DNA of 61,511 nucleotides, counting the filler, from Sphacelaria rigidula (Eukaryota), in the NCBI GenBank assembly GCA_964200075.2. It is 7 parts of 7 records of this genome, joined end to end, with 100 filler letters (N's around TTAATTAATTAA, not from the genome) between each part and the next. Parts side by side here need not be neighbours in the genome. Positions count along the whole stretch, not along the records: positions 17,606 to 26,307 come from CAXNAA020010331.1; 6 more parts are not named here. One strand, written 5' to 3'. Under the pieces are notes generated by a model that had not been told where the DNA came from, searched no databases, and saw only the letters and a program-made list of their open reading frames with translations. Positions 1-61,511 of the stretch are shown here, piece after piece (position 1 is the stretch's first letter; the number at the start of each line of letters is the position of its first letter). The position numbers and the translations under genes are program-made.

Positions 1-510
1 TACTGTCTGATGCATCAAACGATTTCATGCCACCTTTGTTCACGTCCCGCATGTCCCCCTCTATAGCACGTCCCGTTCCTCATGTATACTTCACACTCTG
101 CCACTATATGACTTCTGCTCTCTATTCCTTCGCCACAGAGGCAATTCTGTCGATCTTCTTCCTCGTCCTTTCGACGACTGTCATATCTCTTCCTTCTTTC
201 TGGCAGGTCTAGGTCCCCCACCCGAAATCACAGTTTTCATATTTTTCGCAGCGTCCATTGGGCTATGCAACTACGCTGTCATCCCAATCCCCTCTCTCAA
301 TCACCCGTAAATCTCCAGGTGTTCTTCCTCGCCTACTTTGCGTCTGAGCGCTCCTTTTCTGAGCGCTCCTTGTCTAAGCGCTCCTTCCCCCCTTGTTCCT
401 ATAATATCTCTTACTTGTGCCTTGTACCCCGCGTCTTCACCTATGGACAGTATGTCGTCTTGGTTTCCGCCTATCTCCTTCCACACTTTGGAGAGAGGGG
501 GGGGGGGTTG
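1..510 (-). mobile_element. 3' fragment of a non-LTR (LINE) retrotransposon ORF2, decayed
   Basis: Aligns by eye with about 30977-31460. Translation GDLDLPERRKRY...NCLCGEGIESRSHIVAEC matches the C-terminal cysteine/histidine region of the LINE at 30879-31274. Confidence 0.85.
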
Positions 511-2360: not shown

Positions 2361-3305
2361 TCGGGCTAGTTCCTACACATCAGAAAATCAAACATGTTGA
2401 AAAGTGCATCTTTGGCCCTTTCCCGTCGTTTTTTCCCAGAAAAGAGGGCTAGGCGGACGTTGAAGCCTTGAAATGACTTACTCTACTCGCTGAGATCATT
2501 CCAAATTACCTCTGCGTTTTCCGTACGTCACAGTTTCATTTTTGGCCAAACTTGCATTTTCAATAACAAAGGGTCAAGTTATCCAAAAAAAGGCAGTGTT
2601 CCCCCTGTTCATTGAACCCCCCCTCGATGAGGGGTGTCGTTATGTCATGCAGTGCTTGTCTTGATACACCTGGTATGCTTGTACGTATGGCTGTCCCTCG
2701 AGAGGTCGAAATATGGAACCTTGCGATTCTTAGTTCTTCGGTTGGCGGTATTTGGGGCATTGAGTCTCGCCCGTAGCCAGACCCTATGTTCATTCCTACT
2801 TAGCGTCGCGCGTCGAGTTGGAATGCCGGGTGCCACCCTCTGAACTCCGAATGGTCACCTGCGGCACCGGATCTTCTGAGGTTAGCCATATGTGCTCTCC
2901 TTCTTCTTCATGATTTATCCCTGTTTTGCTTGTATCGCGTTTTGTGAGGTATAATGTGGGTCTATTATTCTTTTTTGCTAGCCTGCGACCACGGAAGGCG
3001 TCCGCATCAGATGCCCAGTACGAATGTACCGCGCAGATATCGGAACGGTTTTCAATGTGAAGACAATAACAACAACAACAACACAATTGATAACTCGAGC
3101 ATTTGTTATTGAAAATGAAAGTTTGGCCAAAAACGAAAGTGTGACGTACGGAAAAGGTAAAGGTGCTCTGGAACGGTCTCAGCGAGTAGAGCACATCATT
3201 TCAAGGTGCCAACGTCCGCCTAGCCCTCTTTTCGGGGAAAAGACGACGGAGAAGGGCCAAAAATGCACTTTTCAGATTTTTTTTGATATTTAAGAACTAG
3301 CTCGA
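2361..3305. repeat. ~200-bp diverged inverted repeat pair (2361-2570 and 3102-3305)
   Basis: gaaaagtgcatctttggcccttt...aaagagggctaggcggacgttg...cattttcaataacaaa is mirrored by tttgttattgaaaatg...caacgtccgcctagccctcttt...gggccaaaaatgcacttttc. Confidence 0.85.
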
Positions 3306-5330: not shown

Positions 5331-5483
5331 GACCCATGACTGTGTATTGTGCACACAAGCCACGACAGTCATAAACATATCTCCAACATTTTCAGCGCAT
5401 TTTGCCGACTTTGTGAACATACAGCACTGAGCGAAACCATCATTTCACTTTGCTAACACCCCCCCCCCCCTCCCAACTCAGGG

Positions 5484-8703: not shown

Positions 8704-8803
8704 NNNNNNNNNNNNNNNNNNNNNNNNNNNNNNNNNNNNNNNNNNNNTTAATTAATTAANNNNNNNNNNNNNNNNNNNNNNNNNNNNNNNNNNNNNNNNN
8801 NNN
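8704..8803. other. Artificial contig spacer (N44-TTAATTAATTAA-N44)
   Basis: The identical 100-bp spacer recurs at 17506-17605, 26308-26407, 35109-35208, 43910-44009 and 52711-52810. Confidence 0.98.
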
Positions 8804-8930
8804 TGCTGAGATTGTTCGGCCCGAAGCTTACTGATTATCTTGCATTTGGATGACATCCTACAATGAGTTGCTTTATTTTCTGGTATCGCCACTCCCTGAG
8901 ACAGCCACGGCCTATACACTGCCTCATGGG
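8804..8930 (-). mobile_element. Internal fragment of short retroposon family A
   Basis: ggatgacatcctacaatgagttgctttattttctggtatcgccactccctgagacagccacggcctatacactgcctcatggg matches 20921-21008 and 23338-23420, and 40637-40720 in reverse. Confidence 0.85.
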
Positions 8931-9141
8931 TTCAGGGGATCCTAACGATCCCAGCTGCACAAGAGTGTAGGGGTCAGGGTGTCCCTGTTTGCAAATTCAT
9001 TCGAGATATCCCTAGCACACTGGAAAAGTGATCCTGGCTTACTTTCACACATTTCATGAGTCGTATTTGGGAGGAGATACTGTAAAGGGCTCCTAACAAC
9101 TCTGACCTCGGAAAATATTTGTGCATCCCTGCCGTAGCATC
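8930..9141. mobile_element. Partial copy of the MITE at 15572-15819
   Basis: gttcagggg.tcctaacgat...gtttgcaaattcattcg...ctgacctc.gaaaatatttgtgca.ccct.ccgtagcatc is shared with 15615-15820. Confidence 0.85.
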
Positions 9142-9285
9142 AACCCAACCCTGCTATGAGCGTACGCCGACGGGGTCGACGATATGATGCTCCCGTGTTG
9201 CGCTTCATGCCCCTTGAAGTCAGCAACTCACAGCTTTCAAGAGATTGCCTCCCATCATACATAGACCATATACTTTGTATGTATA

Positions 9286-15200: not shown

Positions 15201-16900
15201 TCTGCGATCTGCGCATCCAGCAGCTGAAGGGCAACGTCCTCGGTCGCCTACGGCGTCATTGTGTATTGTTGTTTACGGTTCGGGTGAGGATGAACGTCAC
15301 GGAATAGTTGTCAACACAAAATGCACAAAATATCACAAGCGATTTCATTAGTTGTTTCCGTCGCGTTTGCATTGCGTTACAGCGAAGCTCAAGTCTTGTC
15401 GTCGCTTCGCAGTGAATGAGAACATCTACTACCCCGAACACCCGAGCTCCTCATCAGGCACCCATCATCGATCTTTTTTTTTTTTCAGATTTTTACAATA
15501 GTACAAAGCATACCGCACAAGTCTAGTGCACCCCATGCTAAACAATCAGTAACACTTTCACCGGGGGAGCAATGCTATGGTAGGGGTGCACTTTTTTCGC
15601 AAAATCTTGTCTAGTTCAGGGGGTTCCTAACGATTCTAGATGCACAATAGTATGGGTCAGGGCATCCCCGTTTGCAAATTCATTCGGGAACTCCCCAGCA
15701 CATCGGAGTAGTAATCCTGGCGTACTTTCACATATTTTCATGAGTTATGTTATGGATGAGATGAAGGGCTCCTAAACATTCTGACCTCAGAAAATATTTG
15801 TGCACCCCTACCGTAGCATCACTGGGGGTAGAGATGGATTGATCCCTTGAGACCACGGACGCATCATCCCGAGGAAGGGGAGGGGTTCAAAGTGCGACAA
15901 ACAAGAAATATATATCGGCAGTACTGGACGCAATTTGCCATCGACCTCGTGTGAGGTGTCACGATTTCGTCGACTAACACGAAAATGTCAAGCACTCACG
16001 TCACACATTCAGCGACTGCGGCTGTGAGTCGTGGGGACCGTAGTCGCGGGACAGGCCGTCGCATGTTTCTGGAGTTCAGGCGCAGGAGTAGATTGTTGAG
16101 GATCTTACCAACAGATCTGTTGTTTTACCGAAAATCTACGAATGCTTGGGGGAAAGACTTGTCTGCGAAGAATGTGAGAGCAGAATTCTTACGCAGGTCA
16201 GGCAATAGAGCACTTTACGACCGGCTACAAATTTCTTCGAAAATCTAGCGTCGGTTTTCTTTAGGCAACTTTAATTTCGTCGAAAGAAGTCGGGAAAAAC
16301 AAACAAACATTTTTTCGGAAAAAATATGAAACTCTGAAAAATAGTGTACCTCGTCACTTTGACCCCTACAGTATCAGTCATGATTTCCCGAATTTAGTGG
16401 TGGGATCCGACTGTACGTCGTCCTTCATTTTGTTTTTTTTAAATTTAGTCGTATGAGTCGAAAATCACGACGAAGGAGCCGCCGGGCGTGAAAAGTATTA
16501 CCAGTGCCGGTGCAACTATGCGTGAAACGATATCGTTTGTGACGGTAAGGTGGCGCTTGAACTCAAACTTGCCTGGAGTTTCTGAAGGTTGCTCCTCTCG
16601 GACAGTAGCTCCCGCTCCCTTCCTGCTACCTCTTGCAGTATGCTTTCCAACTGTACCTCCTATTTCGTCAGCGTGTGTGGACGAAGGGAGGTGTGGACAG
16701 GAACGCACGTTGTTGTTGTGGTACTCACCGCCGCGTATGTATCGGGAACAATTTGCGGTGTCATCTTTCTCCAACGGCTTATCGAGCTTCGTGATTTTGA
16801 GAACTCGAAAAAGGTTATCTCGAAGGTCGCATTTTCGCCGGACTTCAGCGTCGACGTCAAACTCGACATCAAGACTTTGACGGACGGTGACACTCTAACG
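9286..16900 (-). CDS. Candidate multi-exon gene or decaying gene, coiled-coil plus low-complexity protein of unknown function (partial)
   Basis: Exon-like blocks with AG acceptors and GT/GC donors: ~16728-16900, ~16573-16659 (EVQLESILQEVAGRERELLSERSNLQKLQ), 15110-15247 (ATEDVALQLLDAQIADPEVEALDLESMRSRREKRARG), 12142-12287 (YASIREWIEAELTEQKAERAKLERQERSLKKRLL), 11456-11639, 10516-10923 and 9286-10200. The intervening exon structure is unresolved and some blocks contain stops. Confidence 0.45.
15572..15819. mobile_element. MITE with 20-bp TIRs
   Basis: atgctatggtaggggtgcac (15572-15591) and gtgcacccctaccgtagcat (15800-15819). A second partial copy lies at 8930-9141. Confidence 0.85.
15822..15897 (+). 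repeat. Dispersed repeat shared with 37155-37226
   Basis: ctggggg.agagatgg.ttgatcccttgaga...cggac...catc.cgagga.gggg...ttcaaagtg occurs in two different contigs. Confidence 0.75.
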
Positions 16901-17012: not shown

Positions 17013-17090
17013 GTGTACTGATGATCTTGCATGCCGTAGTCATATTACCATCGGCCTCGTATCCCTAAAAAGCCGGGACGACGCACGCCA
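17013..17090 (-). mobile_element. 5'-truncated copy of short retroposon family A, between G tracts
   Basis: gtgtactgatgatcttgcatgccgtagtcatattaccatcggcctcgtatccctaaaaagccgggacgacgcacgcc, G-rich on both sides. Confidence 0.85.
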
Positions 17091-17432
17091 GGGGGGAGGG
17101 GAGGTGAAGCAAGGGATATGTCCTTGAGTTTGGAGTACGTCGAATATTTTCACTTGAGTTTAGTGTCGACCAGTTAAATTCTAGGGTAAAGCTTGTTCAT
17201 CCTTGATCACTTGACCATCGTGTACCCGCCTGAATCCTACACAACAGTCGTAAGTGTGTTGCAATGGCCACCAAATGCTCAAGTCGCTGAGTGCTACGTG
17301 CTAAGCCCCTGAGTTCAACGTACTGAACCGCTAATCGCTTGAGCGCTGTCTACCGTAGCCCGCCATCAACTATGACCAATATTGGAATAGGGGAATGACT
17401 TTTTGGGGCGCATGCGCAGGGGGGGGGGGGGG

Positions 17433-17471
17433 TACTCATTTGTTGCTTGCCTTAGTCATTTGACCATTGAG
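17433..17471 (-). mobile_element. ~39-bp 3' tip of short retroposon family B with TSD
   Basis: tactcatttgttgcttgccttagtcatttgaccattga is flanked on both sides by gcgca followed by a 13-14 G run. Confidence 0.85.
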
Positions 17472-18217
17472 GCGCAGGGGGGGGGGGGGAGGGGGGGGGA
17501 GTTAANNNNNNNNNNNNNNNNNNNNNNNNNNNNNNNNNNNNNNNNNNNNTTAATTAATTAANNNNNNNNNNNNNNNNNNNNNNNNNNNNNNNNNNNNNNN
17601 NNNNNCTAGAACGAACCCAAGCGTGGGAATTCCCAGCTTCTCGTTGTGCTCGGCTATTCCCATTTCGATTTACGTGAAGATTTGGCCTCCCAAAACCGTG
17701 CACTTTGGGGGAGGGGGGGGGCTATCGTAGAAAGTGTCCGAAAAAAAGAAAATAAATAAATCGCTGAAGAATGGCGTAGGATTATGGTGTTTTGAAATGT
17801 GCCTCAATGACAGCTACTCGGCGACCAAGCCGTATTTCCACGATATCCTTTTCGAATGGTAGGCAATTCAAGTAACGTAAGAGAGTAGAGGTTGGTTTTC
17901 CTCTGCATAAGAAATGCTTGGGTTGAACGATGTTGTGTGTTACACGAATTCAAGGGTGTTAAGACCGCCGATAAATATATACTGCGGTAGTGCGTTCGCC
18001 GGGGTAGTGCTAGTGCTCTCAATCATGGGAGGAGCTCCTCAGCAGCTCCAGATTGCGACGGGGTTACTGACTGCGAAGGGTTTTACTCGATCAGAGATGT
18101 CTGTCAGGCCGCGTGCGCATGGAAATAATGTATCAAGCGCTGACGTTGTTGTTTTTTGTTCCCCTTTTTTTTGTGTGTGTGTTTTTTTTCATTCGTTTTT
18201 GGCCACCTGATTGTAAG

Positions 18218-21200
18218 GCGATGCGCAAGAAAAACAACAAGGATCAGCGGTCGATGAGCAAGATGGAGCTCGAAGTTCGCCGTCAGAAGGCCGCCGCGGC
18301 AAGAAAGGATACTCAGGTGCCGCATATCAAGATTTCTCGGTTCGGACGAATCATAGCCGGTTCGAATCATCACCAAATCCGCGGTATTTCAGGCCTGGTT
18401 GCTTGAAAGAGGGGGGGGGAAAAAGTCGACCGCAGGTCAAATAGGTCTTGACGCAATTTTTGCGCCATCACTACGTGCCCGGGCTGTGCGTACCCAGGTT
18501 GCAACGGTGAAAACAAAGCCGCCTAAGGATTGATGCGTACGGTACGAATCAATCACTCTAAAATCAAGTGATTTCTTAACGAATCATGTATTCCTTCGAC
18601 CTTTGGAAGACCCGGAGGGTGTGTTTGGTGAAGTACATACCTGGGTATTTTCTTTCCACCGTCCTTCTTCTGTGTGACCCCGGCCGATGTGCTCACATAT
18701 GCAGATAGGTATAGACTGATGTCTGGAGTAGATGGAGTGTCGACACATACACGCACAGCGTAACCACTTACTTCGTATATATCCTAGGTGTACAATAGTC
18801 GCTATGTTTCCATGTTCTGACTTGTTCACACATTGGACAATATAGGGCCAACAGATACAAAAAACGAGAGCTGTACTGCATAAATTATGAGCCTGTTACA
18901 ACTATTGCCGACCGACAATAGCTGCAATGGGCCTATACTCTGTGCAGTACCTTTCTTGTCTATTGCAACCACTGATCATATATTGTCCAAGGTGTGGACT
19001 TGTTCAAACAGCCCTGCGAGGGCCGTTAGCCGTCGAACTCACCGGCGTTATAATCTCTTAGATGGCACAATTGGCACCGCAGGGCACCAAACCTTTTGAA
19101 CACCTCGGGTGTCCCCGACAACTTTGAACACCTTCGCCGTTCCCTTGTCTGCATCGTCGTCATCCTCCACACAACTCTCGACCCTGCTTCCCACCTCGAC
19201 TGCCTTCCCCGCCTACCCAGGTGGGCCGCATCGGCGATAAGCTGAAGAAGACGGAGGAACATCTTTTGCGCTTGTTGGCGCTTAGAAAGCAGCAGGGGAC
19301 CATAGATCGAGCCAGATTGCGTGCCGGCGCAGCTTCGAGGCGTGGTGCTGGGGGAGGGGCGACGGCGGCGTCGGCGGCTAGAGCAGCGCAAGTTGCAGGC
19401 GGGGATGCGGAGACTCCCAGCGGTGTGTTTTTGCTGCTGCTGCTGCTGCTGCTGCTGTTGTTGTTGTCGTCGTTGTTGGCGTTAGAAACGGTCCCGATTT
19501 GTGCGCAGTCACTTCTCACTTGTTGTAGTAGTGAAAGTACCAGGGTCGAAATCACTATCTCGTGAAGGAGTTCATGAAATAAAACAATATTTGTGCTGAA
19601 AAGTACCCCCCTTCCCCCCGATGATTCGGCAAATTACTTACATATGTTTTTGTTTTTTTTCTCAAGGAAGTGGCTTCATTCTACCGTAGTATGATCTGAT
19701 AACGGTGAACACTAACACAGTAACATGCGTACCATCTCCTGTACCGTCAATATTACAGTTTTCTGGGCGTACCTTTCGAGGCTATACCTGCTACGACACC
19801 ACCGGTCACTCCGCAGCTGTTTTTTTCCGCTCAAACTTTCATTTTTGGGGTATGTTTGTTTTTTGTGCATAAACATGTCCTCTGCGTTTTCACGATCTCA
19901 TCCATCACCAAAGCAAACGTGTCCAGCACCTGATACGTTTTTTTTTGTAAATACCGGCCCGCTCGCTCGTGTTTCTATTTTTTTCATGTCCACTCTGGTG
20001 CGCAGCACGCGCCGCTGCGATGGCTGCCGCTGCGGCTGCCGAGGCATCTGATGCTAGGGTCTGTGCCGCCAAGCACGTGCTGGATGGAGTCGTTGCGTCG
20101 AGGGTGGAGCAAGCCGCCCTTCGGCAGGCGTTTTCCGCCAAGATCCGTACCTACGACGAACTCACATCTTCACAGGTGAACCATCCCATGGTGGGGGTTG
20201 GGGGAGTGTGTGTGTGACTGACTTGACCAACCCCTTTTCCACGAGAATGTGTTTTGAAAACCCTGCTTTGTTTCACTCCTCTCATGAATGACTACCCCCG
20301 TCTCGAACGGGCGAAGAGGGCGGGGGTCTACTCATGACCTTGCATGATGTAGTTTTTTTTTTTTCCTTCTTTGACGGAAGGTGGGAACCCAACCCAACAC
20401 TTACCTCGCAAACGAGTCCGTGTGCCGATTACCCGAAGGCTCGGCTAGACCGCCTCATGGCAGTCATGTGGGGTAGGCGCTTCGAGCGTTCGCAAGCTTT
20501 GCGCAAGGCAGTGTGGGGATGCTCCCACTTCACCCCCCTAACAACTTGGCGCAGTACACGCGCTGCCATGCTCTTATGAGCTTCGGCCCTAGTGCATGCA
20601 TGCCGGAGTGATATGGCCATTGACCTCGCATCCCTACAAAGCCGGGACGGGGCACGCCGGGTTCTCGCCGGACCAGTCTCGCTATCACCAAGCGCGGATC
20701 GCCCCCTCGGGGGGTTTACTCATTACATTGCATGCCGTATTCATATCGTCATTGACCTCGTATCCCAACGAAGCCGGGGCGGAGCACGCCGGGTTTTCAC
20801 CGGACCAGGCTTGCCGTTGAGAAGCGTGAAGCGCCGTGATGTGTTCGACGAGTCGCAAGAAGGGTGGCCTGCATCCTGCCAAGATTATTCGACCCGAAGC
20901 GAAGCGATTGTCTTTCGTATGGATGACAGCCTTGAATGAGTTGCTTCATTTTCTGTTATAGTATCGTCATTTCAACAGACAGCCGCGGGCTACACACTGC
21001 CTCATGGGTGTCTCACTATTTGAAGACTAGTGCTATCATCCCGTTTGCGCGAGGTTGATGTTCTCCCACTCCGCGAAATATGATGTAGCTCGACTACCAT
21101 CATGGTTACCGCCAAAAAAAACGCAAGCGAAAAAAAAACGGTAACCTGGTTTCCTCGCTTGCGCCATGAGTTTCATATTTTACGGCATCGTTGCCAATCG

Positions 21201-24200
21201 ACGCCAACCCTTCACAGCGAAATAAGGGTTGGGGGCGGCGATTGATTGATTTTTCCCGGGAAGAACGGAGTTCATAAGGTGTTACTGTTACCGACACAGA
21301 TGTCTCTTCGTACGTGGAGCTACCACTGTGTTTGCTGAAGACCGACAGAAAGAATACTTTATGCACGCACTATTTCCTCAAGCAACCTCTGAAGAGGCTT
21401 TCAAGTCCCTTATTCCGTATGTTTGGGCAAAAAATCGGTCAAAATACCCCCCCCGTTTCTCCCCCTCCAACCACCGGTAGATGAGTCGAGTAGGATGCTC
21501 GGACGAAGAGGGTGAGATGTTTCACATATTCGTTGTTCTATGGATGAATGTGTCTTGATATCATCACGCGTTCCTGGTGCGTATTGCAGCTATGCCTCTG
21601 CTCTTCCTCCCTGCTTTCCCCCCCCCCTAAAAAAAAGAAGGATGATTGAAGGAACGTAATGAGCGCCATAATGTTGGAGGTGTCACTATTAGGAGTAGGA
21701 ACGGTGCTCCGTCTCGAAAGGGGTTCGTGGTCAACGGTCAAACGACTAAGGCAAGCAACAAATGAGTCCCCCCCCCCCCCCTGAAAAAAAAAGTTTTGAC
21801 CGTCTACCCACCTAGCCCCCGGTTGCTTTAGGTAGTTTCCAATCAATCAATCAATCAATCAAAAAGGATCACTTTTCGTGAAAAAAAACAACAGCATTGA
21901 ACCTCGAGGGGTGCGACCAGCAATTCTAACGTCAGAGTACCGTGGACCACCACACTTGGAACAGAACACAGTTCAGAGGAGTCTACACCATACTGTACTC
22001 GTACTGCACTTGCGCTTGTTTGTTTCATTTGTCCTTGCACGTGAACCACTAATGTTTTGTTTTGTAGTGCCATCATGATGTTACCCCGTACTGACGTGTT
22101 TTGTCTTCTCGTCTTGTTCCAGGTGGGCAACATCAGCATGCTCAGAGACTACAGAGCACAGCTGAAGGAACTCAAAGCTACCGCTGGCGCAGCTGCCGCT
22201 GCCGCTGCCTCGGGTACACCCGCCACGCGCTGGGCAGACTACAGAGATGCAGGAGGAGCCGAAAACGTCGACCCGGGCAGTCGGTCGCGAGCGAGGCCGG
22301 GCGCGGCCATCGGCAAGAACGGAGGGAGAAGTAGTGGGGGTAGCGGAAGCGTCAGCAGCAAGGATGTTGGGTCTTCTGTAGGGGAGGTGGCGGACGTCGA
22401 CACCTTCGAGGGGCAGGCGGCTGTGCTGGAGGCACTGGTGCAGGAAACCGAAAAGGTAAATGTGTGTGTGTGTGTTTGTGTGTGCGTGTAGTGTGTAGTG
22501 TGTTTTGTGGATAGGAGGTTGTAAGGTTTTATGGGTTGTTATTCGGGAGTGTCGGCTGCGGAAGATCTTGTGGTCGCAGTCGCTACGAGTGGTTTCCGAG
22601 TTCTGATGTGCTGTTGATGGATGATGGATGTCCTTGGCGCTGTTGTAGTCGTGCTGGCCGTTGGGTTCTTCTCTCTTGGTCTTCAGCATGACGAATGTTA
22701 TCTTATTCTCTTCCTGTTCTTGAGAAGGCAGCAATCCTGGCCGTGTACCTCGCTTTTCTCTAGTTTTGTACAGAGGGTTTGACCACCGAGGTCCTTGCGG
22801 CTCCACTTGCCCGCCTTCTCGGGTGTCTGCCCTCGAGCATACCTGTCATGATGACATAGCTGGTTCGGTGTGTAGCGGGAGGCATCAAGCAGCAAGGAGG
22901 GGTGCGAGCGTCATGTATTCATTCCTTTGTGGGCACTAACAGACCGACAAGTATATCTGACTGGACATTCAACCACGGTATCAAGTACACGAGATGCCGG
23001 GTGAGCCGCAGCGGTCCACCTGAGTGGGGGCCTGTAGTGGCAGACCCATTCGCCACCCAGGTTCCCAGTTCGACGCAACGATAATTGAGCGGACTTGGTT
23101 TTTCTGGGCGGTGAGGGCGAGGGGCAAGGATATTCATGATCTTGCATGCCGTATTCAAATTGACCTTTGACCTCGCGTCTCTACAAAGCCGGGACGGAGC
23201 ACGCCGGGTTTTCGCCGAACCAGGCTCGCAATCAATCACCAAGCGTGAAGCCCCGTGGCGTGTTCGACGAGTCGCATCAAGGGTGATCTGCATTCTGCTA
23301 AGATTTTCGACCCGAAGCGGGCTATTTTTCTTGCTTATGGATGACAGCCTTGAATTAGTTACTGCATTTTATAATATCGTCATTTCCGGAGACAGCCACG
23401 GCTCATACACTGCCTCACGGCGCTCTCACTATTCTAAGACTTTATAGTACGATCATCTTCTGTGCACGGAGTTGAGTTTTTCCCACCCCGCACAGTATGA
23501 TCTGGCTCGACCAGCGTCATGTTTACCGCAAGAAAACGCAAGCGGGCGGGCGAGGGGAAGCGGGGGTGGGGTTGATACAGTTGGTTTCGATTCGTTGGAG
23601 ATACAGTTTGGGTTTTGTTCTGACAAATATCTGATTTCTGCCGTCCAAGTCTTGAGGACATGAGTAGCGACCAAAGTTTGTTTGACTAGCGTACACAGAA
23701 AGGGACAGAGAGGGTTCGATCGAGACCCAAGAGGACGGTAAAGTTTCCATGGCGTGTGATGAACGTCCAGCTTGTGACGACGGCTAGATTCTCAGCTGAT
23801 CGACCAATCGATCAAACGAGTCGGACACATTGACCATGACGTGTGACACGACCATGGACCGTGCTTGCGCCGGTGGTAATGCGCGGCCGGGCATGTACGA
23901 ACCTTTCGAGTTTTCCAGGCCTTACGAAAAGCGCAACGAAGCGATGAGTTAAGGCAAACACCTTGTGCCTGTTTCCGTCATCCGCAGCACAATGGCTGCC
24001 GCACACATTGTATTTTTGTTGTTCTCTCTCTTTCTCTTTCTAAATTTAGATCTAAATCCAAGTCTAAATCTGAATCTTAATTTGAAAATAAATCTTAATT
24101 TCAACCTAAACTTGTTGAGAAACATTCGTCAGTGCTCGATGTATTTCTAGCGTCCATTCCGGCCTACGAACACCTTTAGCCGAAATTTCACAGGATTGTC

Positions 24201-26205: not shown

Positions 26206-26231
26206 GTGTACTCATGATCATGCATGCCATA
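26206..26231 (-). mobile_element. ~25-bp 3' tip of family A between G tracts
   Basis: ggggtgtactcatgatcatgcatgccata followed by a long G run. Confidence 0.75.
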
Positions 26232-26849
26232 GGGGGGGGGCGGGGGGGGGGGGGGTAGCACGGTTGTCGAGGCCGTGGGTGGTTTCGCATCAATCCCCGA
26301 GGATGTCNNNNNNNNNNNNNNNNNNNNNNNNNNNNNNNNNNNNNNNNNNNNTTAATTAATTAANNNNNNNNNNNNNNNNNNNNNNNNNNNNNNNNNNNNN
26401 NNNNNNNAGTACACCTCCTCCCCCCCCTCCCTCCTCCCTCCCCTCCGTGACAGATGGCCGTTATGATCCACAGGGCTTCTGGCCGGTGACCTCGCTAGCC
26501 CCCCACGGGAGCTTCAAAGTGCAGCACTAGAATCCTGGTGCTGGCGCATTTTCGTGTCCATCGCCGGCCCAACTGTCTGGTCGCCGTTCACCGCCCCCCC
26601 GCTGAAATCTCAATATATCGTCCACCAAGTGAACACCTTGAGGATGTCGCCATCTCCCGACGTATGACATTCTTTCCCAGGAGCAGAACACTACGCCACA
26701 CTGTCCCTATCCGGCCGAACCTGCGTGCTGTTTCGGAACCCGCCCTGGCAGTGGCACCCGCGATAAATCGTTACATGCCGCTGCCAATGACCGGCAGTTC
26801 GACACCGGTAGTGTCAATGGCTCGACAAGTACCGACGTATGTTTAAAGA

Positions 26850-30799: not shown

Positions 30800-33700
30800 A
30801 CGACATAATCTAGCGGCCAAAACCCACACGGGAGGCCACTGGTACACGTTATCTGCATTCTGGAGCATTACGTTTCTTTCATACATTACACAAAAACCTT
30901 TGACATATCCTATCCCTGTCCTGTTTCGCCGTCTCTGGCCACCATCTATCTCCTAGTATAGTCATTGTTTTCTCCCTACTGTCTAATGCACCAAACGATT
31001 TCATGCCATCTTCGTTCACGTCCCGCATTTCTTCCTCTAGCACGTCCAGTTCCTCCTTCACGTCCCGTTCCTCGTTGCATAGGTCACATCCTGCCACTAT
31101 ATGACTTCTGCTCTTTATTGCTTTGCCACAGGGGCAGTTCTGTGCATCTACTTCCTCCTCCACACGACTACTGGGATATCTCTTTCTTCTCTCTGGCAGG
31201 TCCAGGTCCCCCACCCGAAATCGCAGTTTCAATTTTTTCGCAGCGTCCATGGAGCCATGCAGATATGCTTTCATCCGATCCCCTCTCTCAACGACCCGTA
31301 TATCTCCAGGTGTTCTTCCTCGTCTACTTTGCGTCTCAGCGCTCCTTTTCCCCTTATTTCTATCATGTCCTTTACTTCTGTCTTGTACCCCGTGTCTTCA
31401 TCTATGGACAGTATTTCGTCTTGGTTTCCTCTTATCCCCTGCCATACTTTGTCAACTTCTCGATCCCACCTTGTTCCAGCCTTCCCTTTCGTACTTTTCT
31501 CCCATGCAGCCCGATCAACTATAGCTGGCAATATCTTTCTCTGCATGTTCTCTACGCTATACTGCCATCTCAATTTCCTCATATTTCTGTTTGTTTTAAG
31601 TGAATACATTCCCACCTATGCTCTCAACGCTGTAATACTCGTCATTTTCGAGCATCCAGGTATCTTCTTAGCTGCTGCCACATGTACTGTTTCCAATTTC
31701 TCCGCCACCTTCACGTTCCCCTCCCGTACTTTTCCTGCATATTCCAGCTTTGGTACAATCACATTCATCAGGATACATATCTCAATCCTAGTGTCTAGGT
31801 GCGAGTTTCTGAGGACAACATCGATCCTACCTCTGTGCCTTATCCTTTCCTATTACTTTATTTATGTGTGCATCCTAAGAACAGTTTCTTGATACCTTTA
31901 CAAGTACAACAAGGTATGTGTACTGGTCTACGATCGGCAATTCCTCTTCTCCCCACTTCCACTTGAACTCTACCAGATTTTTATTATCTTCGTTGCAGAC
32001 GAATACCGCGCATTTGTTGACGTTCGCTGTCACTCTCCATTTCCTAGTGTATTCTAGAGCCTTTTCTATTTGCTTTTGCAATCTTTCTGGTGTTTCTGGA
32101 ATCCCCACAAAATCATTCGCGAACATCAAAGCTGATGTCACATCTTCACCCACCTTGAGTCCTTGATTTGCTTCTACCGCTTTCATCAAGTCATTAATGA
32201 ATACCCTGAACAAAGTGGGTGATAACGTACATCCTTGTGCAACTCCTTATAAAACATCGAAATATTTCGATATTTCCCGGCTAGCATCATGGCACGTTTG
32301 GGCACATTTTGTCATCTTCTTTACCATTTTCCATATCTTTCCTCTGATCCCAGTTTCTCACAGTTTTTTTCACAATCCGTTTCTCCATACTGTGCCATAA
32401 GCTTTTTGCACGTCCAGAAAGAAACAGTACGTTGTCAACCCGGCGTCTTCCCTACCTTGAATAATCTTACCTAGTGTGTACACGTGGTCTACGCAACGAC
32501 GGTTTGGTCTGAAACCTGCTTACCCCTCGCTGATTTTTTCGTCCTTTTCTAGAATCGTTCCTACTCGATCGTTCAGAATTTTACAGAATTTTTTCCCTAC
32601 CGTGCTCAGTAGCGTTATCCCTCTATAAATCCCTGGGTCAGCCTTGTCTCCTTTTTGGAAAGATTGACTACTACTCCTCCTCTCTACCTCTTGGGTATAT
32701 ACTCGTTTTCCCATATCCAGTTGTACAGCTCAACCATCATGGTAATCATTCCCTCCCCCCTGTACTTCGTTCATTGACGACTAAGGCAAGCAACGAATGG
32801 GTACGCCTCCCCCCCCTGTACTTCAGAAAAAAAATCACAATTCCGTCTGCCCCTGCTGCTTTTTTGTTCTTGAGTTTAGCTACGCACTTCTTTACTTCAT
32901 CTCTGGAAATTCTCTCTGCAAATCTTCCGAGCCACTATCCTCCGGTTTTGACGTCTCTGCATGTGCTTCTGCCCACTCATTGATCTCTTTCTCGAATTCC
33001 GTGTCGAACTTCGTGTTAGTTTTTGGTGTTTCTAGTTTACGGTAGTGCTCGACTAGCACTTCTCGCTTCCCCTTCGAACTACTGACTATTTTGCCGTTCT
33101 TTGTCCGGAGTGTAGCTATCCCGTTGTCTATCTTTCTTGACTGGTTTCCCACAATCCCTTCTATCCTCACCCACATTTGTTTTATCCCGCCATCGAAAGT
33201 TTCATTTGTTTTAGTTTCTACACCTTCCCATACTTCCTTTTTTTTCTTCTGTGCCATAGTTTTTACTTCCTTCCGAGCTTTAGTATACTCCTCCCATCCT
33301 ACCGTGCTTTTGCTCGACATCCGCCTCGCGTGGGCCTCTCTCCTTACTCTTATAGACTCTTTTACTTCCTCATCCCACCAGTGTACTGCGCTGTTGCATA
33401 CTATCAGTTTCCTCCCTATGACTTCACTCGCTGTGTTCTTGACCAGCTGCTCCCGTCCTTCTACAATCCTCGCTCCTGCCCGATTTCTTTCCATTTCGTA
33501 TCAACTGTTCCTACGTGTTCAAACAGTTCGGAAAATTTCACTGCGTGTTTGGTCATTTCTTCTTAAAAATCTTGCTGTTTTCCTTCCATATTTAGTTCAT
33601 CGATTCTCCATTTGTACAACTTCCCACCCCGCATATTTATTTCAGCTCTCGCCTGTTGGCTTCCTGTTCATACAAGATAGTGATCTATAGTTCCCACGTC

Positions 33701-35040
33701 GACCGGGCATACATGTACTTCCATTTCTTCACTATTTCCATACTCTACCGCTATATAATCAAGAACGGAGTGTTCTCTCTTTTTTCCTGTGCATTTCCTC
33801 GCCCATGTCCATTGCACCTCTGACTTTAGTACTCTATCTTTCAGCGTCTTCATCCACCCCAATCATGTTCTTATCTTCCCCCCTATTGCCCAATGATATC
33901 ATCCGGTTGACCTGTTTTTCCTACCCTTGCATTCAAATTTCCCGCTAACATTACATCTTCTTGCATTTTATACTTACGTACATCTGTTGACATCTCTCCA
34001 AACCTACGCTGAATATCGTTTATCCTACTCTTCAATTCTGGGGACATGTAGATGTTCCCCACGAAGAAGTCCTTCGTTCCCCGCTCTCCTGGTACCCTTA
34101 TTCATATGCTCTCGTCGAATTTCGTGTCATCGATCACTTCGGTAATGTCACACAGGTATTTCTTGACTAAGAATCCTACTCCCCCCGCTCCCCTGCTATT
34201 GGGCTTCTGTCTTTTCCACTTCTTCCCTATCCATGCGTTATCTTCCACTTTGCATCCTATTTCCATTTCTTCTTTCTCCCATGACTCTTGAATTCCTACT
34301 ATATCTAGGTCGTGCTTACTTGCTTGTTGGGCTATCTTCATTCCTTTGCGTTCGTCTGTGGCGAAGCCACACACGTTCCACGATCCTATTCTCAACTCTT
34401 TCCGAATCATATTCAGTTCTCTTGTTGTCTGCTATCCTCTTTCCGTGTATCTTACTTCTACCCTTCCTTGCTCGATTTTTCTGCCCCTTGCCGGTTTGGT
34501 CTTTGCGTAGTTGCTTCGGGCCACCATGTCCCCTCCCCTCCCCCTTCCGGGCATTTACCTGTTCCTGCCTCTCTTTCCCTCCGTTTGCCCGTGCACTACG
34601 TCTTCGGTTTTTTATTCCCTTAGCAGTGCATACTCTCCATCCTACCCTTCTAACCCATGCCGATACCTTACTTATTTCTATCCTTTCCCACTCCTTGCTC
34701 GCGCTCTGTTTTAGCGTGGATCGGAAGTGTTCTCCTTCCCTCTCTACTTTTCCTGTTGCCAAACAGTATAATCCAACTTCATCGTATTTCTTTTTAAGTT
34801 CTACTCTCGTCATGTCGCTACGGACTCCGAATAACAGCACTACTTGCACTTTACCCGACCACTCCTTACTCCTCCATCGGCCCTTCCTTACCATCTTCCT
34901 CTCGATCTCCTTCGAGAGAATCTCCAGCTTGTTGGTTTCAATCATATTGATGGGATATCGTCAACGTTCTGGGACACATCCCAATTCTAGTACTCGTTGG
35001 GGGTCTGGTTCCTCTCAGTTTTTTTGCTGGCTCACCGACA
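30800..35040 (-). mobile_element. Near full-length decayed LINE (ORF1-like region, APE endonuclease, RT, C-terminal Cys/His motif)
   Basis: APE: LRIGSWNVCG...DIVGIQESW, LDYIAV, TIDHYLV. RT: YRGITLLSTVGK, GVAQGCTLSPTLFRVFINDL, LMFANDFVG, YTYL. C-terminus: CPCGKAIKSRSHIVAGC. Basic upstream ORF at 34316-34945. Many frameshifts. Confidence 0.93.
32769..32805 (+). mobile_element. 37-bp family B tip inserted in the LINE RT region
   Basis: gttcattgacgactaaggcaagcaacgaatgggtacg is flanked by duplicated cct(C)n-tgtacttc. Confidence 0.8.
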
Positions 35041-35749
35041 CTAAATAATGCCTGCAACATGGGCTCGTAGCCTGAAGCCAAGTTCAACACCTTTGACACA
35101 AATACCCCNNNNNNNNNNNNNNNNNNNNNNNNNNNNNNNNNNNNNNNNNNNNTTAATTAATTAANNNNNNNNNNNNNNNNNNNNNNNNNNNNNNNNNNNN
35201 NNNNNNNNCTCGGGGAATCAAGCCCTCCTACTCCACCATCAGAAGGTTACGAGGTTACCAACTGAGCCACCGGGGCGACCGGCAACGGTTTGGAGAGGCA
35301 AAATCTACACGTGAATCAAAATAAAAAAAGCCGGGCACAATGAGCAGCCGGGAATTCCCACGCTCGAGTTCGCTTCCGCCAATGTCGCCCGTATGAGGTG
35401 CTTCATGCAGCCTGACACCAAACACCAAGCGGTGTATGACCATCTTCTTCGCGACAGTTTTGAGCTGTTTTTTCAGGGGGGACTATCGTAGAAAGCGTCG
35501 TAATCTGAAGGAATCGGCCCGTGTCAATGAACCCTTTGGGTATCCTCCCCTTCTGTCCCCGGGTCAGACGCCTCATTATTTTAACGAGCCCTGGCGAAGA
35601 AAGAAAATATAGAAACAGAAGTCGGTCGACCATTTTCACGGCGGAAGGCCACAGAAGGATCCAGCAGCATACGTCATGCGCGCACCAAAAATGTCACCCC
35701 GGGTGCGGTCGGATTACTTTTGCCCTGTAAGGGACGCAAGTTTGTTCGA

Positions 35750-40500: not shown

Positions 40501-41959
40501 ACTGCCATCTTTTGTCCAGGGCGTGATTGGTTGGTTTACACTCACTCACTCACCCACTCATTCACTCACTCACTCACCCACTCACTCGCTGCGCAAAGGG
40601 GATGATCGTACGACGTAGTGTTTGAACGGTGAGATACCCATGAGGCAGTCTACAAGCCGTGGCTGTCTCTGGAAGTGGCAATACCAGAAAATAAAGCAAC
40701 CCATTGGGGGCTGCTATTTTTATACAAGATAATCAATACTCTTCGGGCGGAACCATCTCAGCACGGCGAAGTTCCCCCTTCATGCGACTAGTCGCCGTGC
40801 ACACCACGGTGCTTCGTCCTTGGTGATCGATACCGAGCCTGGTCCGGCCGAAACCCGGCGTGCTCCGTCCCGGCTTTGTACGGATGCGAGGCCAACGGTC
40901 TCATGGCCATGGCATGAAAGATGATGAGTGTCCACTCACTCACTGGCCTACTCTGGCTTAAGGACTTATTCACTGGTTGATTGATGGTTTGTTTCACATC
41001 CACCGATGCAATGTGATATGCGCCCCCAAGGTAATTATAGAGCGAAACCTGCAGAAGCTTTTGTGTTGTCGTGGGTCTGCTGTACTGTACCGCGAACGAT
41101 GCCCAACGCCTATTGTCTGGAGGTGCTGTCCCACAGTACATCTTTTCCCCCTCCCTTCGGTCCTCCCAAGCAGTTTTTGCGGGATCATAATGGCCGAGTT
41201 GCAACGTGTTGTCCGGGTGGGCGGGATACTGTCGGAGGCCTACCGCGATTTCTATCGAGAACATTTTATATTGTGTTTTTCATTTTGCCACTGCTCGAGT
41301 TTTTGTTGAAGACTTGTCGTTTGTTTTTGTTGGTCGTGTCCTTGCACTCCCTGCGACTCGATTTTGTATTTTCTGCGAGTGTTTTGCGCGTTCAGCTTCC
41401 TTTGGGGTACTCGTACGAGGTGTGTCTTCTGGTAACGCCGACTGTTTGTTCGCAGTGGATTAGTGTGTGTGCCAGAGAGACGATCAGACAGATCGACCTG
41501 GCTGATGATGTCAATTTATCGAACGACGTGTTGAGTCAAAGGTGATGATTTTTATCGGATGTATTACATGGATCAAATCAAATTAAACCAGATCACATCG
41601 AAACAAAGCGAAGCGAATCAATCGAATCGGGTCAATCAGATACAAATCAAATCAGATCCATCACATGAAGTCACATCACACCGAATCAGATCAGATCAGA
41701 TAAGCTTAAATCTGACCAGATCCGCTTAAATCTGACCAGATCCGCTTAAATCAGACCAGATCAGATCGGTTCAAGTCAAATCTAATGAATTGATGAACAG
41801 GTTACGCGCGCGAGCAGCGATGTTGGCCGGTGCCAATCTGTTGGAGGAGGGAAAATGGCGCGAGGCTTCGGTGCAGGCTTTCGCAACGGCGGTGTCTGCG
41901 TATCCGGACGATACTGAGACTCTGGCTTCTGCCGGAGAGGGATCCTTGGAGTATGGCAG
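37553..41959 (+). CDS. Internal exons of a TPR-like helical-repeat protein (partial)
   Basis: Phase-compatible GT-AG exons at 37553-37682 (YAEALNLESSSGGSDTETLLSRAGVVVDFLDW), 38212-38335 (GDHAVGVLLGLDASNRGGLLAKADLS) and 41801-41959 (ASVQAFATAVSAYPDDTETLASAGEGSLEYG). Confidence 0.7.
38721..39054. mobile_element. MITE with ~50-bp TIRs and an internal TTAGGG-like motif
   Basis: actttaacactcggtagttgacagatagtcctcggaaagttccggtttgt versus acaaaccataaatttccgagaaatatctgtcaactaccgagtggtaaagt. ggggttagggttag lies at about 38976. Confidence 0.8.
39662..39880. repeat. Tandem array of about five 44-45-bp units, each with an internal inverted repeat
   Basis: The unit aatagggcgagcactcgagccagtgctcgttgtggaaa... 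repeats near 39662, 39707, 39751, 39795 and 39841. Confidence 0.85.
40248..40401. repeat. (TTGATTCA/TTGGTTCA)n microsatellite
   Basis: Visible 8-bp periodic run. Confidence 0.95.
40402..40525. mobile_element. Short palindromic MITE related to 18827-18996
   Basis: Termini cacaccctcgtccaaaag / cttttgtccagggcgtg, flanks attgattg / attggttg, internal gtactgc...gcagcac. Confidence 0.65.
40604..40932 (+). mobile_element. Family A retroposon copy next to (CACT)n
   Basis: Reverse complement of the 23129-23460 sequence. Ends ggcatgaaagatgatgagtgtc followed by cactcactcact, with a (CACT)n run at 40539-40587 upstream. Confidence 0.85.
41570..41790. repeat. Degenerate (ATCAR)n pentamer repeat including three ~20-bp tandem units
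   Basis: atcaaatcaaat...atcagatcag, with gcttaaatctgaccagatcc repeated at 41704-41762. Confidence 0.85.
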
Positions 41960-44009
41960 GTGCAAAATCCGCGGTAGTTCAGTACCTTATGAGTTCCAGC
42001 GATTGCCGGTCAGAGTAACCTACAGTAAGCTCGAGTGATTTCGGAGGTACACATTGATTGCGTAATATTTTCTCTGCATGTCGTCGAGCAGAGTTGGCGG
42101 CCCCGGGAACAATACTAAGTGATGGCGAGCGTACGAAGTTTGTGCGGGTGCTATACATTAGAATCGAAAAGGACGCGATTTTTTTAGTTTTTTGCGGGGC
42201 CTTATTTCTTCTCAACTGGATACATTTTGCGTTTCAGCTATGATGTTGGAGATCAAACGATAAATGGTTGCGTCGTTTACGGCTGCTGGTCAATATTCGT
42301 TTCATTTTCCAGCTAACGCGCCGTTTATTTATACTTGTTTTCATCTTTTTTTCTGGGGGCAGGAAGGTTTTGCTACATCATGAAAGCTTGCGCACGTTGA
42401 AAGCCTAATTGTGACATACTTCGCTGTCGAATCGTCTTGAGATACCTGGTTGATCCGTCAGCAGCCAATATTTTTACCAGGGGGGGTAGGGAGGGGTATT
42501 CCAGTACAATAATCAACGATGCGGTCATTAGACATGAGTCTCATGAAGCATGTTGTCTGCGACGTCACAATTGTCATTTTCGTCCACCTACGCCTCTTTT
42601 TATTTTCAGGCCAATTTGCACTGTCGCTGCCCATCAAACTCGTCTTTGTTTTTTCTTGTTTTTTCACGCTGGCACTTTTTCACCACTAGGGCTTCAATTT
42701 CAATCTGCGCATAGATTAAAGATACGAAATCCCGACAGTCCCCCATCCCCACCCCCTCTTCTACCCCCGCTCGAGAAACAAAGAAAAAACAGGCCCAATG
42801 TGTGAGCTAAATTTTGTCGTTTCCCGCCATTCTCCTGTTGCATTCTCAGTGCGCTGAATATCTTCTGGCCGCAAGTGCTTAAACAATGAGACAGAACCCG
42901 TCGGTCCCAAGACGGCGTCCCCTTTGCTTCTGCATTGGTGTAGTAGTATCAATATTCCTTCGTGCGATATATACACGTATCTATATATACACATTTCGAA
43001 TCAAAAAAATATTCCGTGGAAAGTGAACGCGCGCCTCGTCCAGTAGTAAAGGTTCATTCGCCAGCATCGTCATCATCCGATCGCCCGCCCGTTCACGCCT
43101 TGCATGCAGCTGATGCTGAAGGGGTGGAGAGTTTCGTGTGCAGTGGTATCCGTGCCATGTATACACTTTTTGATCAACGCTATGTATCGCCTGCTAGTCG
43201 TCGGAAAATACTTTTTTTTTTGTTTTTGCGAAAAAATAAAAAGTGAGCTATCGGTACGGCCTCCAGAGACTGGAAAAAAGAAGAAAAAAGGGAAAGCGCT
43301 GGGAGAATCACGAGAATATATCCTATCCACTGCTCACTATCAGGGTCGCAACGGAACAAGGGGGGATCGGCGACTTTAGTCCCGCAACAACGTATCGACA
43401 TCAAAATTGTACTTCTCTAGTTGAACCGCACCGGTTTCGACACCCAACTCATCGCCGTTCGGACGGCGTGCTCCCGAAGACAAAATTGTGGGTAAGCATG
43501 TACGAAAAAAATGGGCGGAAAACTTCGCAAGTCCCGAGGAATCAATTGTGCGCACTTTTGGGATTTTCGTCGCTTGAGGCTTTGAGAGCCGAGACGTGAA
43601 ATGAAATGCTGCTCAGAAAAGCAACATGAAATCACTCGGAACCAATTTTCACGACTGTCGTATGTGCGATTCTACTTTTCCATCTTTGAGAAAATTGGAT
43701 CTTTGTTGCAAAAATTCAGTGGAGAAACCGTGAAAAAAACATAGGGCAGTGCAGGCCTTCGGATAATGAATTCGTTCACCTCTGATCACATTTTCTGGGC
43801 CTTAACTCCTGAACCTCTCGAGTGATGGAATCTCCGTATATTATCTTTTGGGCAATGGCCTAGAAAAGGTATACCTTCTCGTTTTTTGCCCAAGAAAGGT
43901 ACGAAAAATNNNNNNNNNNNNNNNNNNNNNNNNNNNNNNNNNNNNNNNNNNNNTTAATTAATTAANNNNNNNNNNNNNNNNNNNNNNNNNNNNNNNNNNN
44001 NNNNNNNNN

Positions 44010-44070
44010 CATTTGTTGCTTGCCGTAGTCGTTTGACCATTGACCACGCATCCCTTTCGAGACGGAGCGG
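44010..44070 (-). mobile_element. Family B copy cut by the contig start
   Basis: catttgttgcttgccgtagtcgtttgaccattgaccacgcatccctttcgagacggagc followed by a G run. Confidence 0.85.
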
Positions 44071-61300: not shown

Positions 61301-61377
61301 AGAAAAAAAAGGAGACACGAAGAACGCCGGACGCATGTCGGGTTTGCGATTTCGGTGGTTCCCAGGTGAGTCTTTTT

Positions 61378-61511
61378 CACACCTTGGACAATATATGGTC
61401 AATATTTGCAATAGACAAGAAAGGTACTGCATAAAGTACAGGCCTATTGCGACTATTGTCGACCGGCAATAGCTGCAATAGGCCTATACTTTATGCAGTA
61501 CACTTCTCGTC
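61378..61511. mobile_element. Palindromic MITE, same family as 18827-18996, cut by the window end
   Basis: Starts cacaccttggacaatata. Near-perfect hairpin gtactgcataaagtacaggcctattgc...gcaataggcctatactttatgcagtac. Confidence 0.88.

Follow-up and report, generated by a model that had tools for sequence, protein, structure and literature searches.

The closest described counterparts of the repeats treated here, which lie in a stretch of DNA from the brown alga Sphacelaria rigidula, are found among the long interspersed nuclear elements (LINEs) of Ectocarpus. In the element table for that genus, RTEX-1_Ec32 and RTEX-2_Ec32 are entered with a "single EN-RT ORF; (C)n 3'", that is, one open reading frame (ORF) for endonuclease (EN) and reverse transcriptase (RT), and with a "C-rich" target-site duplication (TSD). 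Two shorter elements stand beside them: RTEX-N1_Ec32, of 607 bp, has a head of unknown origin, occurs sometimes in tandem, is 83% like RTEX-1/2 in its 3' 60 bp and exceeds 6000 copies, and RTEX-N2_Ec32, of 188 bp, joins a different head to a similar tail (PMC12477816). RTEX-N1 is classed by the Ectocarpus authors as a LINE-dependent non-autonomous element, and among the other LINE groups of that genome RTE ends in (CAA)n and CRE in (CA)n (PMC12477816). A wider frame is offered by the stringent type of LINE/SINE pair (SINE, short interspersed nuclear element), whose members have a common 3' tail: the LINE partners described are of the RTE and CR1 clades, as in Bov-B/Bov-tA and the eel pair, a stem-loop is common in such tails, and non-autonomous partners without an RNA polymerase III head are also known (PMC3747384).

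The stretch analysed here (the window) comprises 61,511 nt of S. rigidula assembly GCA_964200075.2. A preliminary description had recognised in it two different short elements, families A and B, with unrelated bodies and a shared structured 3' end of ~70 nt (the core), and had proposed that an unidentified RT uses this end as a recognition RNA. The core is very likely the 3'-terminal module of an autonomous brown-alga LINE, with a single ORF of ~1330-1360 amino acids (aa) encoding an apurinic/apyrimidinic-type (APE-type) EN and an RT, and it is carried too by family A, a non-coding element of ~413 nt. What appeared to be a novel structured RNA thus becomes an annotated pair in S. rigidula, an EN-RT LINE with a C tail and the non-coding element that accompanies it. 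The suggestion that a SINE-like element had borrowed its partner's 3' tail is in this way supported in kind, since an autonomous RT element and a non-coding passenger do share a 3' module.

As far as the Ectocarpus descriptions go, the likeness is close. The LINE resembles Ectocarpus RTE-X in its brown-alga host, single EN-RT ORF, (C)n 3' end and C-rich duplications, and family A resembles the RTEX-N families, which, with 5' parts of unknown origin, have 60-100 bp of 3' end in common with the LINEs, occur in tandem and reach very high copy number; in contrast, A measures ~413 nt as against 607 and 188 bp, and its host belongs to the order Sphacelariales. The LINE itself likely belongs to the RTE-X clade, an assignment made by likeness to the descriptions of RTEX-1/2; the traits that fit are the single EN-RT ORF and the (C)n terminus with C-rich duplications (C13 at the outside locus L001 described below, and C14, C14 and C8 at the copies B1, B3 and B4). 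As in the stringent-type pairs, a short passenger bears the terminal ~70-100 nt of a LINE (PMC3747384). Unlike the tails described for those pairs, the one found here is part of the ORF, hardly any 3' untranslated region being left, and is followed by a C homopolymer instead of a short tandem repeat or poly(A); the dependence of the passenger on this tail is, in our case, read from sequence. The Ectocarpus table does not state the coding status of the shared tail, whereas here the tail is coding. The pair is, accordingly, an already known arrangement of C-tailed LINE end and passenger in a second brown-alga order, and the coding status of the tail is its only mildly unusual point. Literature searches on the core motifs returned chance primer matches only, and those on poly-C, non-LTR and RTE terms, which did not extend to the supplements of other papers, returned nothing relevant.

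The shared core and the LINE that bears it

The window consists of seven complete contigs from a fragmented assembly (8703, 8702, 8702 and four times 8701 nt), joined by linkers of the form N44-TTAATTAATTAA-N44 at 8704-8803, 17506-17605, 26308-26407, 35109-35208, 43910-44009 and 52711-52810, and adjoining pieces are not neighbours in the genome. The core was found at all four places from which it had been reported, namely 21704-21767(+) and 44010-44068(-) in family B (copies B1 and B2) and 40860-40932(+) and 23129-23202(-) in family A (copies A1 and A2). The pattern CGWGGYCAAHGGTC, with up to two mismatches allowed, matches the window 13 times against 4.0 expected, a count that none of 100 shuffles reached, and its exact matches are precisely the four cores of B1, B2, A1 and A2. 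A covariance model (CM) built from four A copies alone, with the three stems of the preliminary description, recovers the cores of B1 (35.2 bits, E 7e-9) and B2 (33.3 bits, E 3e-8) besides five A cores at 60-92 bits and the tail of L001 at 51.2 bits. Since MAFFT misaligned the 5' part of B, where the loop is shorter, the CM alignment was used instead, which leans towards structure. Loop 2 is GAAA in B and 9 nt long in A, as had been noted, and the most invariant block, GGCA-GCA-A, is kept in 9/9 aligned copies within a stretch that the proposed model leaves unpaired. Two limits drawn earlier for family B had to be moved: the feature had been extended to 21781, whereas 21768-21781 is no part of a fold but a C14 run with which the 3' duplication opens and into which any C tail has merged; and B2, taken to stop at its element end, is in fact cut by a contig edge (N run from 44009).

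Core identity is nearly as high between the families (66-72%) as within A (68-79%), and on this ground A and B might be taken for one uniformly diverged repeat family. Such a reading is highly improbable, being contradicted by the sequence upstream of the core, where B continues as coding sequence of the LINE, to which A shows no relation. Homology detected by nhmmer stops at the core border, when the B head was aligned with three A bodies by Smith-Waterman, 353, 217 and 98 out of 500 shuffles scored as high, and a translated comparison found nothing significant, so that on the unrelatedness of the two bodies the preliminary description was right.

The connection between core and protein is provided by a locus outside the window. 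When a degenerate 30-nt core pattern was run against contigs of prokaryotic genomes, the sole match (L001) was positions 1-749 of CBRFFM010000043.1, a contig of 5259 nt assigned to a bacterial metagenome-assembled genome (MAG); the contig is probably algal DNA that was mis-binned there. Its minus strand holds a 5'-open ORF of 211 aa that crosses both the B head and the core and ends at a TGA, behind which come GTACG and C13; the core of the LINE thus corresponds to the last 22 codons (...NGAPSRKGCVVNGQMTKASNK), the TGA and ~5 nt more, after which the C run begins. Identity to L001 amounts to 112/124 (90%) for B1, 57/59 (97%) for B2, 39/39 (100%) for B3 and 26/29 (90%) for B4.

When longer proteins were searched with the L001 ORF, 11 passed E <= 0.001. 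Among them P0045 (1360 aa, identity 85%) and P0047 (1328 aa, 69%) are full length, and each covers 100% of the 211-aa query and ends in the same C-terminal peptide. Both carry Exo_endo_phos (3.4e-12 and 8.1e-15, respectively) and RVT_1 (9.8e-31 and 1.7e-32), and P0045 is laid out as a single ORF with EN at 170-414 and RT at 740-989. The named relatives of the L001 ORF come from Ectocarpus sp. and S. rigidula, and the Ectocarpus proteins share the terminal peptide. Because the L001 ORF runs through head and core and has full-length EN-RT relatives, B is to be regarded as a LINE end and not as a short element. The RT partner left unidentified in the preliminary description is thereby identified as a single-ORF EN-RT LINE whose ORF ends inside the core. 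One further relative, P0048 (Ectocarpus sp., 1927 aa), is a gene model joining Gypsy-type RT/RNase H and NADAR domains to the C-terminal part of the LINE protein, and is apparently a nested insertion annotated as a single gene.

Judged by these matches, the four B copies are 5'-truncated copies of an autonomous endonuclease-RT LINE. B1 (21638-21767, +) is a 130-nt end holding the last ~36 codons, the TGA at 21763-21765 and 2 nt more; tblastn with residues 1324-1359 of P0045 matches it at 80.6% over 21652-21759. B2 (44010-44068, -) is preceded by C12 (44069-44080) and has lost its last ~8 nt at the contig edge. B3 (17433-17471, -) is a 39-nt end with a perfect 18-nt duplication on either side, and B4 (32769-32805, +) is a 37-nt end lying in opposite orientation within a degraded LINE of the fourth contig.

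Family A, for its part, is not the element of ~72 nt first supposed. An nhmmer profile of the full-length element gives it ~413 nt, non-coding, and its only homology to L001 connects profile positions 341-411 with L001 174-110 (E 2.5e-9), nothing being found upstream. The stretch shared with the LINE is thus the last 65-71 nt, in which the A tail has the 9-nt loop in place of GAAA and a further 1-nt indel; with both, the reading frame is lost and the A tail does not code. Two copies are full length, A2 (23129-23541, -; profile 2-414; CM 87.6 bits; core at 23129-23202) and A3 (20715-21122, -; profile 3-413), the latter standing head-to-tail with A4 across a C6 run. A1 (40582-40933, +; profile 66-414; CM 91.7 bits) lacks the first ~65 nt and lies within a (CACT)n tract. 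The remaining copies are shorter: A4 (20597-20702, -; profile 290-399), directly downstream of A3, is 5'-truncated and its last ~20 nt are unrelated sequence; A5 (17015-17092, -) is a 5'-truncated core of 78 nt with C-rich flanks; A6 (8804-8931, -; profile 120-248) is an internal piece cut by the contig edge; A7 (26207-26231, -) is a 25-nt tail remnant that has C14-G-C9 (26232-26255) on one side and C-rich sequence on its 3' side; and A8 (20328-20351, -) is a 24-nt tail remnant followed by a C-rich flank, weak alone (nhmmer E 0.48, CM E 0.88). At 26408-26427(+), the first letters of the fourth contig are the final 6 nt of a tail, AGTACA, and then CCTCCT-C8, the copy being cut by the contig edge.

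No Rfam family was matched at E <= 10 over two full copies of A, and ARAGORN found no tRNA. Because neither search reveals a small-RNA head, A is filed as a LINE-dependent non-autonomous element and not as a strict SINE; presumably it borrows the enzyme of the LINE through its tail of 65-71 nt.

Taken together, at least 12 copies or fragments of A and B, plus the tail remnant at a contig edge, lie in 60.9 kb, a density of ~1 copy per 5 kb. Four contig ends fall inside A/B repeats (8804, 17505, 26408 and 44010). Given this abundance and the several contig ends inside them, A and LINE repeats are probably a limit on the assembly, and it would be advisable to mask them ahead of gene prediction. 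Between A4 and A8, a weak match to A profile 53-136 was also seen at 20446-20531(-) (E 5.8); it may be a third, highly decayed or internally deleted A-like copy, in which case the region would be a nest of at least four insertions.

Insertion marks and proposed mechanism

The copies, 25-413 nt long, have a fixed 3' end, ...GAGTA (with or without C, CA or CG), and a variable 5' truncation. Clear target-site duplications were recognised at B1, B3, B4 and A2, all of them C-rich, and together with the 5' truncation they are the marks of target-primed reverse transcription. At B1 the duplication is ~22 nt long, its 5' copy (21618-21637, +) reading C10-T-A8-G and its 3' copy (21768-21793, +) C14-TG-A9-G; the two score 17 against each other, as compared with a cross-pair mean of 7.7 (sd 2.9). 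At B3 it is perfect (18/18, C13-TGCGC), with the 5' copy at 17472-17489 and its repeat within the 19-nt C14-TGCGC of 17414-17432. At B4, CCCCCCTGTACTTC (C6-TGTACTTC) is repeated 14/14 at 32755-32768 and 32811-32824, and the C run beyond the 3' end is C8. In all three of these clear cases the C run on the 3' side exceeds that on the 5' side (10/14 at B1, 13/14 at B3 and 6/8 at B4, 5' run first). At A2, 18/21 alignment columns match in a C-rich duplication (2 gaps, 1 mismatch). The 12/12 duplication at A1, CACTCACTCACT, is ambiguous, lying as it does in the (CACT)n microsatellite, and those at A5 and A7, with their C-rich flanks, are ambiguous as well. Over all copies scored, own pairs of flanks gave 13.5, 7, 6.5, 8.5, 6.5, 17, 18 and 14 against the cross-pair mean (n=56); two of the low values are due to misplaced boundaries, that of A2 having been rescored with a corrected boundary and that of A3 not. 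In a flank listing read by eye, 9/20 of the C/G runs that reach 8 nt or more within the window adjoin an element end. The other 11/20 (8-14 nt; 497-507, 5459-5470, 53359-53372 and eight more) have no recognisable element alongside, and may represent either unoccupied target-like sites or what is left of earlier insertions.

Short, abundant and clustered copies would also be expected of a DNA transposon, or of a miniature inverted-repeat transposable element (MITE), whose terminus the core would then represent. The probability of this is negligible, given copies that have a common 3' end and a 5' truncation varying from 25 to 413 nt, duplications of 12 to 22 nt, and a partner that encodes an RT, although no search aimed at inverted repeats was made.

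Some observations do weigh against an autonomous C-tailed LINE as the source of the core. The window contains no full-length LINE bearing the tail; the link between ORF body and tail comes from one outside locus of 749 nt together with relatives known as proteins only; that locus carries a bacterial MAG label; and, with regard to targets, the A1 duplication is (CACT)n-like and not a C run, while the duplications of A3 and A4 could not be made out.

If the LINE is nevertheless the source, insertion could proceed as follows. The endonuclease would nick the bottom strand at a G run, and the G-rich 3' end released in this way would anneal to the C's that terminate the RNA; an RT attached to the tail, recognised either as a fold or as a sequence, would then begin synthesis of complementary DNA (cDNA). 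Incomplete cDNA synthesis would give rise to 5' truncation, and second-strand repair to a duplication of 14-22 nt opening with the C run. Every insertion would leave C runs on both sides, and the tandem and clustered copies could be explained by these insertion-made runs serving as new targets. Insertion at C runs that recreates C runs would be a simple way for tandem copies to arise and for homopolymer tracts to spread.

The L1 element inserts at A-rich targets with priming on poly(A), and its passengers need no specific tail. Like L1, the LINE considered here has duplications that open with the homopolymer of the element tail, as would be expected if the nicked target strand primes on that tail. 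Unlike L1, the homopolymer is of C instead of A, and a specific tail of 70 nt is shared with the passenger.

Structure of the shared tail

The preliminary description had drawn the core as three stems (P1-P3), with P1 closing the domain at the element end, and had regarded the pairing as compensatory. On seven cores, however, the proposed pairs are formed in 80.7% of cells, as compared with 80.2% in shuffles (reached by 207/500), and the covariation score is 0.176 against 0.179 (reached by 280/500), so that neither pairing nor covariation exceeds what shuffling gives, in a test made on few copies, most of them decayed. The two cells in which both sides had changed belong, when the aligned rows are read, to A4 with its unrelated 3' end and to B2, cut by the contig end. 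RNAalifold retains only P2 (-6.94 kcal/mol, covariation term +0.96), and the five cores folded from the window are no better than shuffles, with z-scores of +0.82, +0.11, +0.82, +1.50 and -1.00. As for P3, the GGTC/GGCC pairing attributed to family A is present only in A1, a decayed copy, whereas the other four of five A copies keep 1-3 of its 4 pairs.

The intact tail of L001 behaves somewhat differently from the window cores. All 16 proposed pairs are satisfied in it, and the minimum free energy structure of the 66-nt tail alone is the fold proposed earlier (-17.3 kcal/mol, z -2.01, with 9/200 shuffles as good). The three-stem drawing is thus reproduced for the tail alone, but the signal is lost in longer context: the z-score falls to -0.65 when the C's are included and to -0.10 in 145 nt, where another pairing replaces P1, and P2 and P3 persist. 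The borders of the module shared by A and the LINE are the 5' and the 3' strand of P1, and the A and B consensus sequences differ at 1/32 stem positions against 8/31 unpaired ones, loop 2 being replaced altogether (Fisher p 0.013, from a hand count made post hoc). At the protein level, the last 22 aa match the L001 ORF more closely than the region preceding them (22/22 against 156/189 in P0045, 21/22 against 124/188 in P0047 and 18/22 against 122/188 in P0048). Stem conservation in the LINE is confounded by coding constraint, however, and so are the contrast between stems and loops and the conservation of the 22 residues.

With these points on either side, the proposition that the RT requires an RNA fold of the tail stands at even chances or slightly below. 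A stronger form of it, which we consider rather unlikely, would make the last 66 nt dual-purpose, encoding the 22-residue C-terminus, whose conservation between Sphacelariales and Ectocarpales exceeds that of the remaining C-terminal region, and at the same time forming a P1-closed RNA domain that the RT must bind on its C-tailed template, A having captured exactly that closed domain. If this were true, protein and cis-RNA constraints would overlap codon by codon, and the tail of the parasite could separate them; with a recognition tail that is coding, the pair would be a natural case for telling RNA constraint from protein constraint. Neither this point nor the route to tandem copies described above changes the current understanding of LINE/SINE biology.

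It is also possible, though somewhat doubtful, that the tail is shared by descent only, that no fold is read and that the stems are incidental to coding. Family A would then have a single origin, perhaps in template switching or in a deletion that left the LINE end in place, and would be mobilised through its terminal nucleotides and the C's alone. This would agree with the lack of covariation, with the loss of P1 and P3 in RNAalifold, with z-scores near zero in 5/5 window cores and in L001 in context, and with the position of the most invariant block, GGCA-GCA-A, in an unpaired stretch. What it leaves less well explained is that A retains 65-71 nt and not the terminus alone, that the borders of this module coincide with the P1 strands and the differences between A and the LINE concentrate in loops, and that the peptide encoded by the tail shows stronger conservation than the residues around it, which a second constraint would predict.

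A stem that closes the domain at the element end, together with a GNRA-type loop in the LINE version, may likewise recall a known structured RNA, be it a ribozyme that cleaves itself, a tRNA-like 3' end of the kind present in the Mauriceville retroplasmid, to which the terminal A-CC had been compared, or a SINE head derived from a small RNA. We regard this as very improbable. Rfam gave 0 matches at gathering score over the whole window, and at E <= 10 over 20400-23500, which holds four cores, only snoR24 (E = 9), off the core; ARAGORN found 0 tRNAs. Moreover, the 3' C's form a run of 8-14 nt that is repeated at the 5' flank, so that they are not a CCA end, and the Mauriceville analogy is not supported. 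The comparison with Rfam that had been recommended thus yields no match on the core, and the LINE end remains the preferred identity.

The sister LINE and other features of the window

A degraded, near full-length LINE of a sister lineage lies at 30867-34891(-); it codes for the same EN-RT protein, yet its 3' end differs. Residues 1-1326 of the 1360 of P0045 align with it at 55-69% identity and the last 34 codons diverge; Exo_endo_phos is recognised at 34102-34431 (2.4e-6) and RVT_1 at 31875-32246 (1.3e-9). To the L001 protein it is 67% identical over 134 aa, and at the DNA level 148/196 positions are identical until ~34 codons before the stop, beyond which the two are unrelated (43/107). Its 3' end contains no core by CM with filters off, by nhmmer --max or by blastn with word size 7. 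The statement that the LINE at 30800-35040 does not show this end is therefore correct for that copy; yet the LINE is a relative of the one that bears the core.

Between the B head and the stop-codon region of this LINE there is a marginal likeness (8/500 shuffles; E 0.28), which, with L001 for comparison, is seen to be true homology of coding ends; translated comparison of A and B with the sister LINE found nothing significant. The stretch CAGAATGCAGATCAC of the A body, at 23243-23257(-), shares 14/15 nt with 30848-30862(-), just past the premature stop of the sister LINE (7/500 shuffles). This match, which is not significant alone, may be a trace of the origin of the A body in the 3' region of a sister LINE.

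A second, 5'-truncated copy of the sister lineage is found at 1-507(-), the element itself occupying 1 to ~491 and its 3' end lying past the contig edge; it matches 30977-31451 at 77.7% over 507 nt. On its own strand it is directly preceded by C11-TCTCTC (497-507), which suggests that the sister lineage also inserts at C runs.

Several further repeats are present in the window. A palindromic repeat occurs at 18824-18999 and 61372-61511, each locus matching itself in reverse; the two are 79-85% alike, the second is cut by the window end, and the repeat may be a foldback or MITE-like element unrelated to A and B. Another dispersed family, of 72-80% identity, is found at 8930-9142, 15614-15821 and 2187-2288, one copy adjoining the truncated A6, and an inverted repeat pair of ~220 nt and 83% identity lies at 2361-2583 and 3089-3305, ~500 nt apart. 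Finally, 46833-48792(+) holds a gene with apparent introns for an IPT/TIG-domain protein (Pfam TIG, 4.1e-20; TIG ORF at 47356-48792). The best named relative of this ORF, an S. rigidula protein, maps to 46833-46898 (100%) and to 47404-48723 with intron-like gaps, and the many relatives of the gene at 47-61% identity suggest a large brown-alga family.

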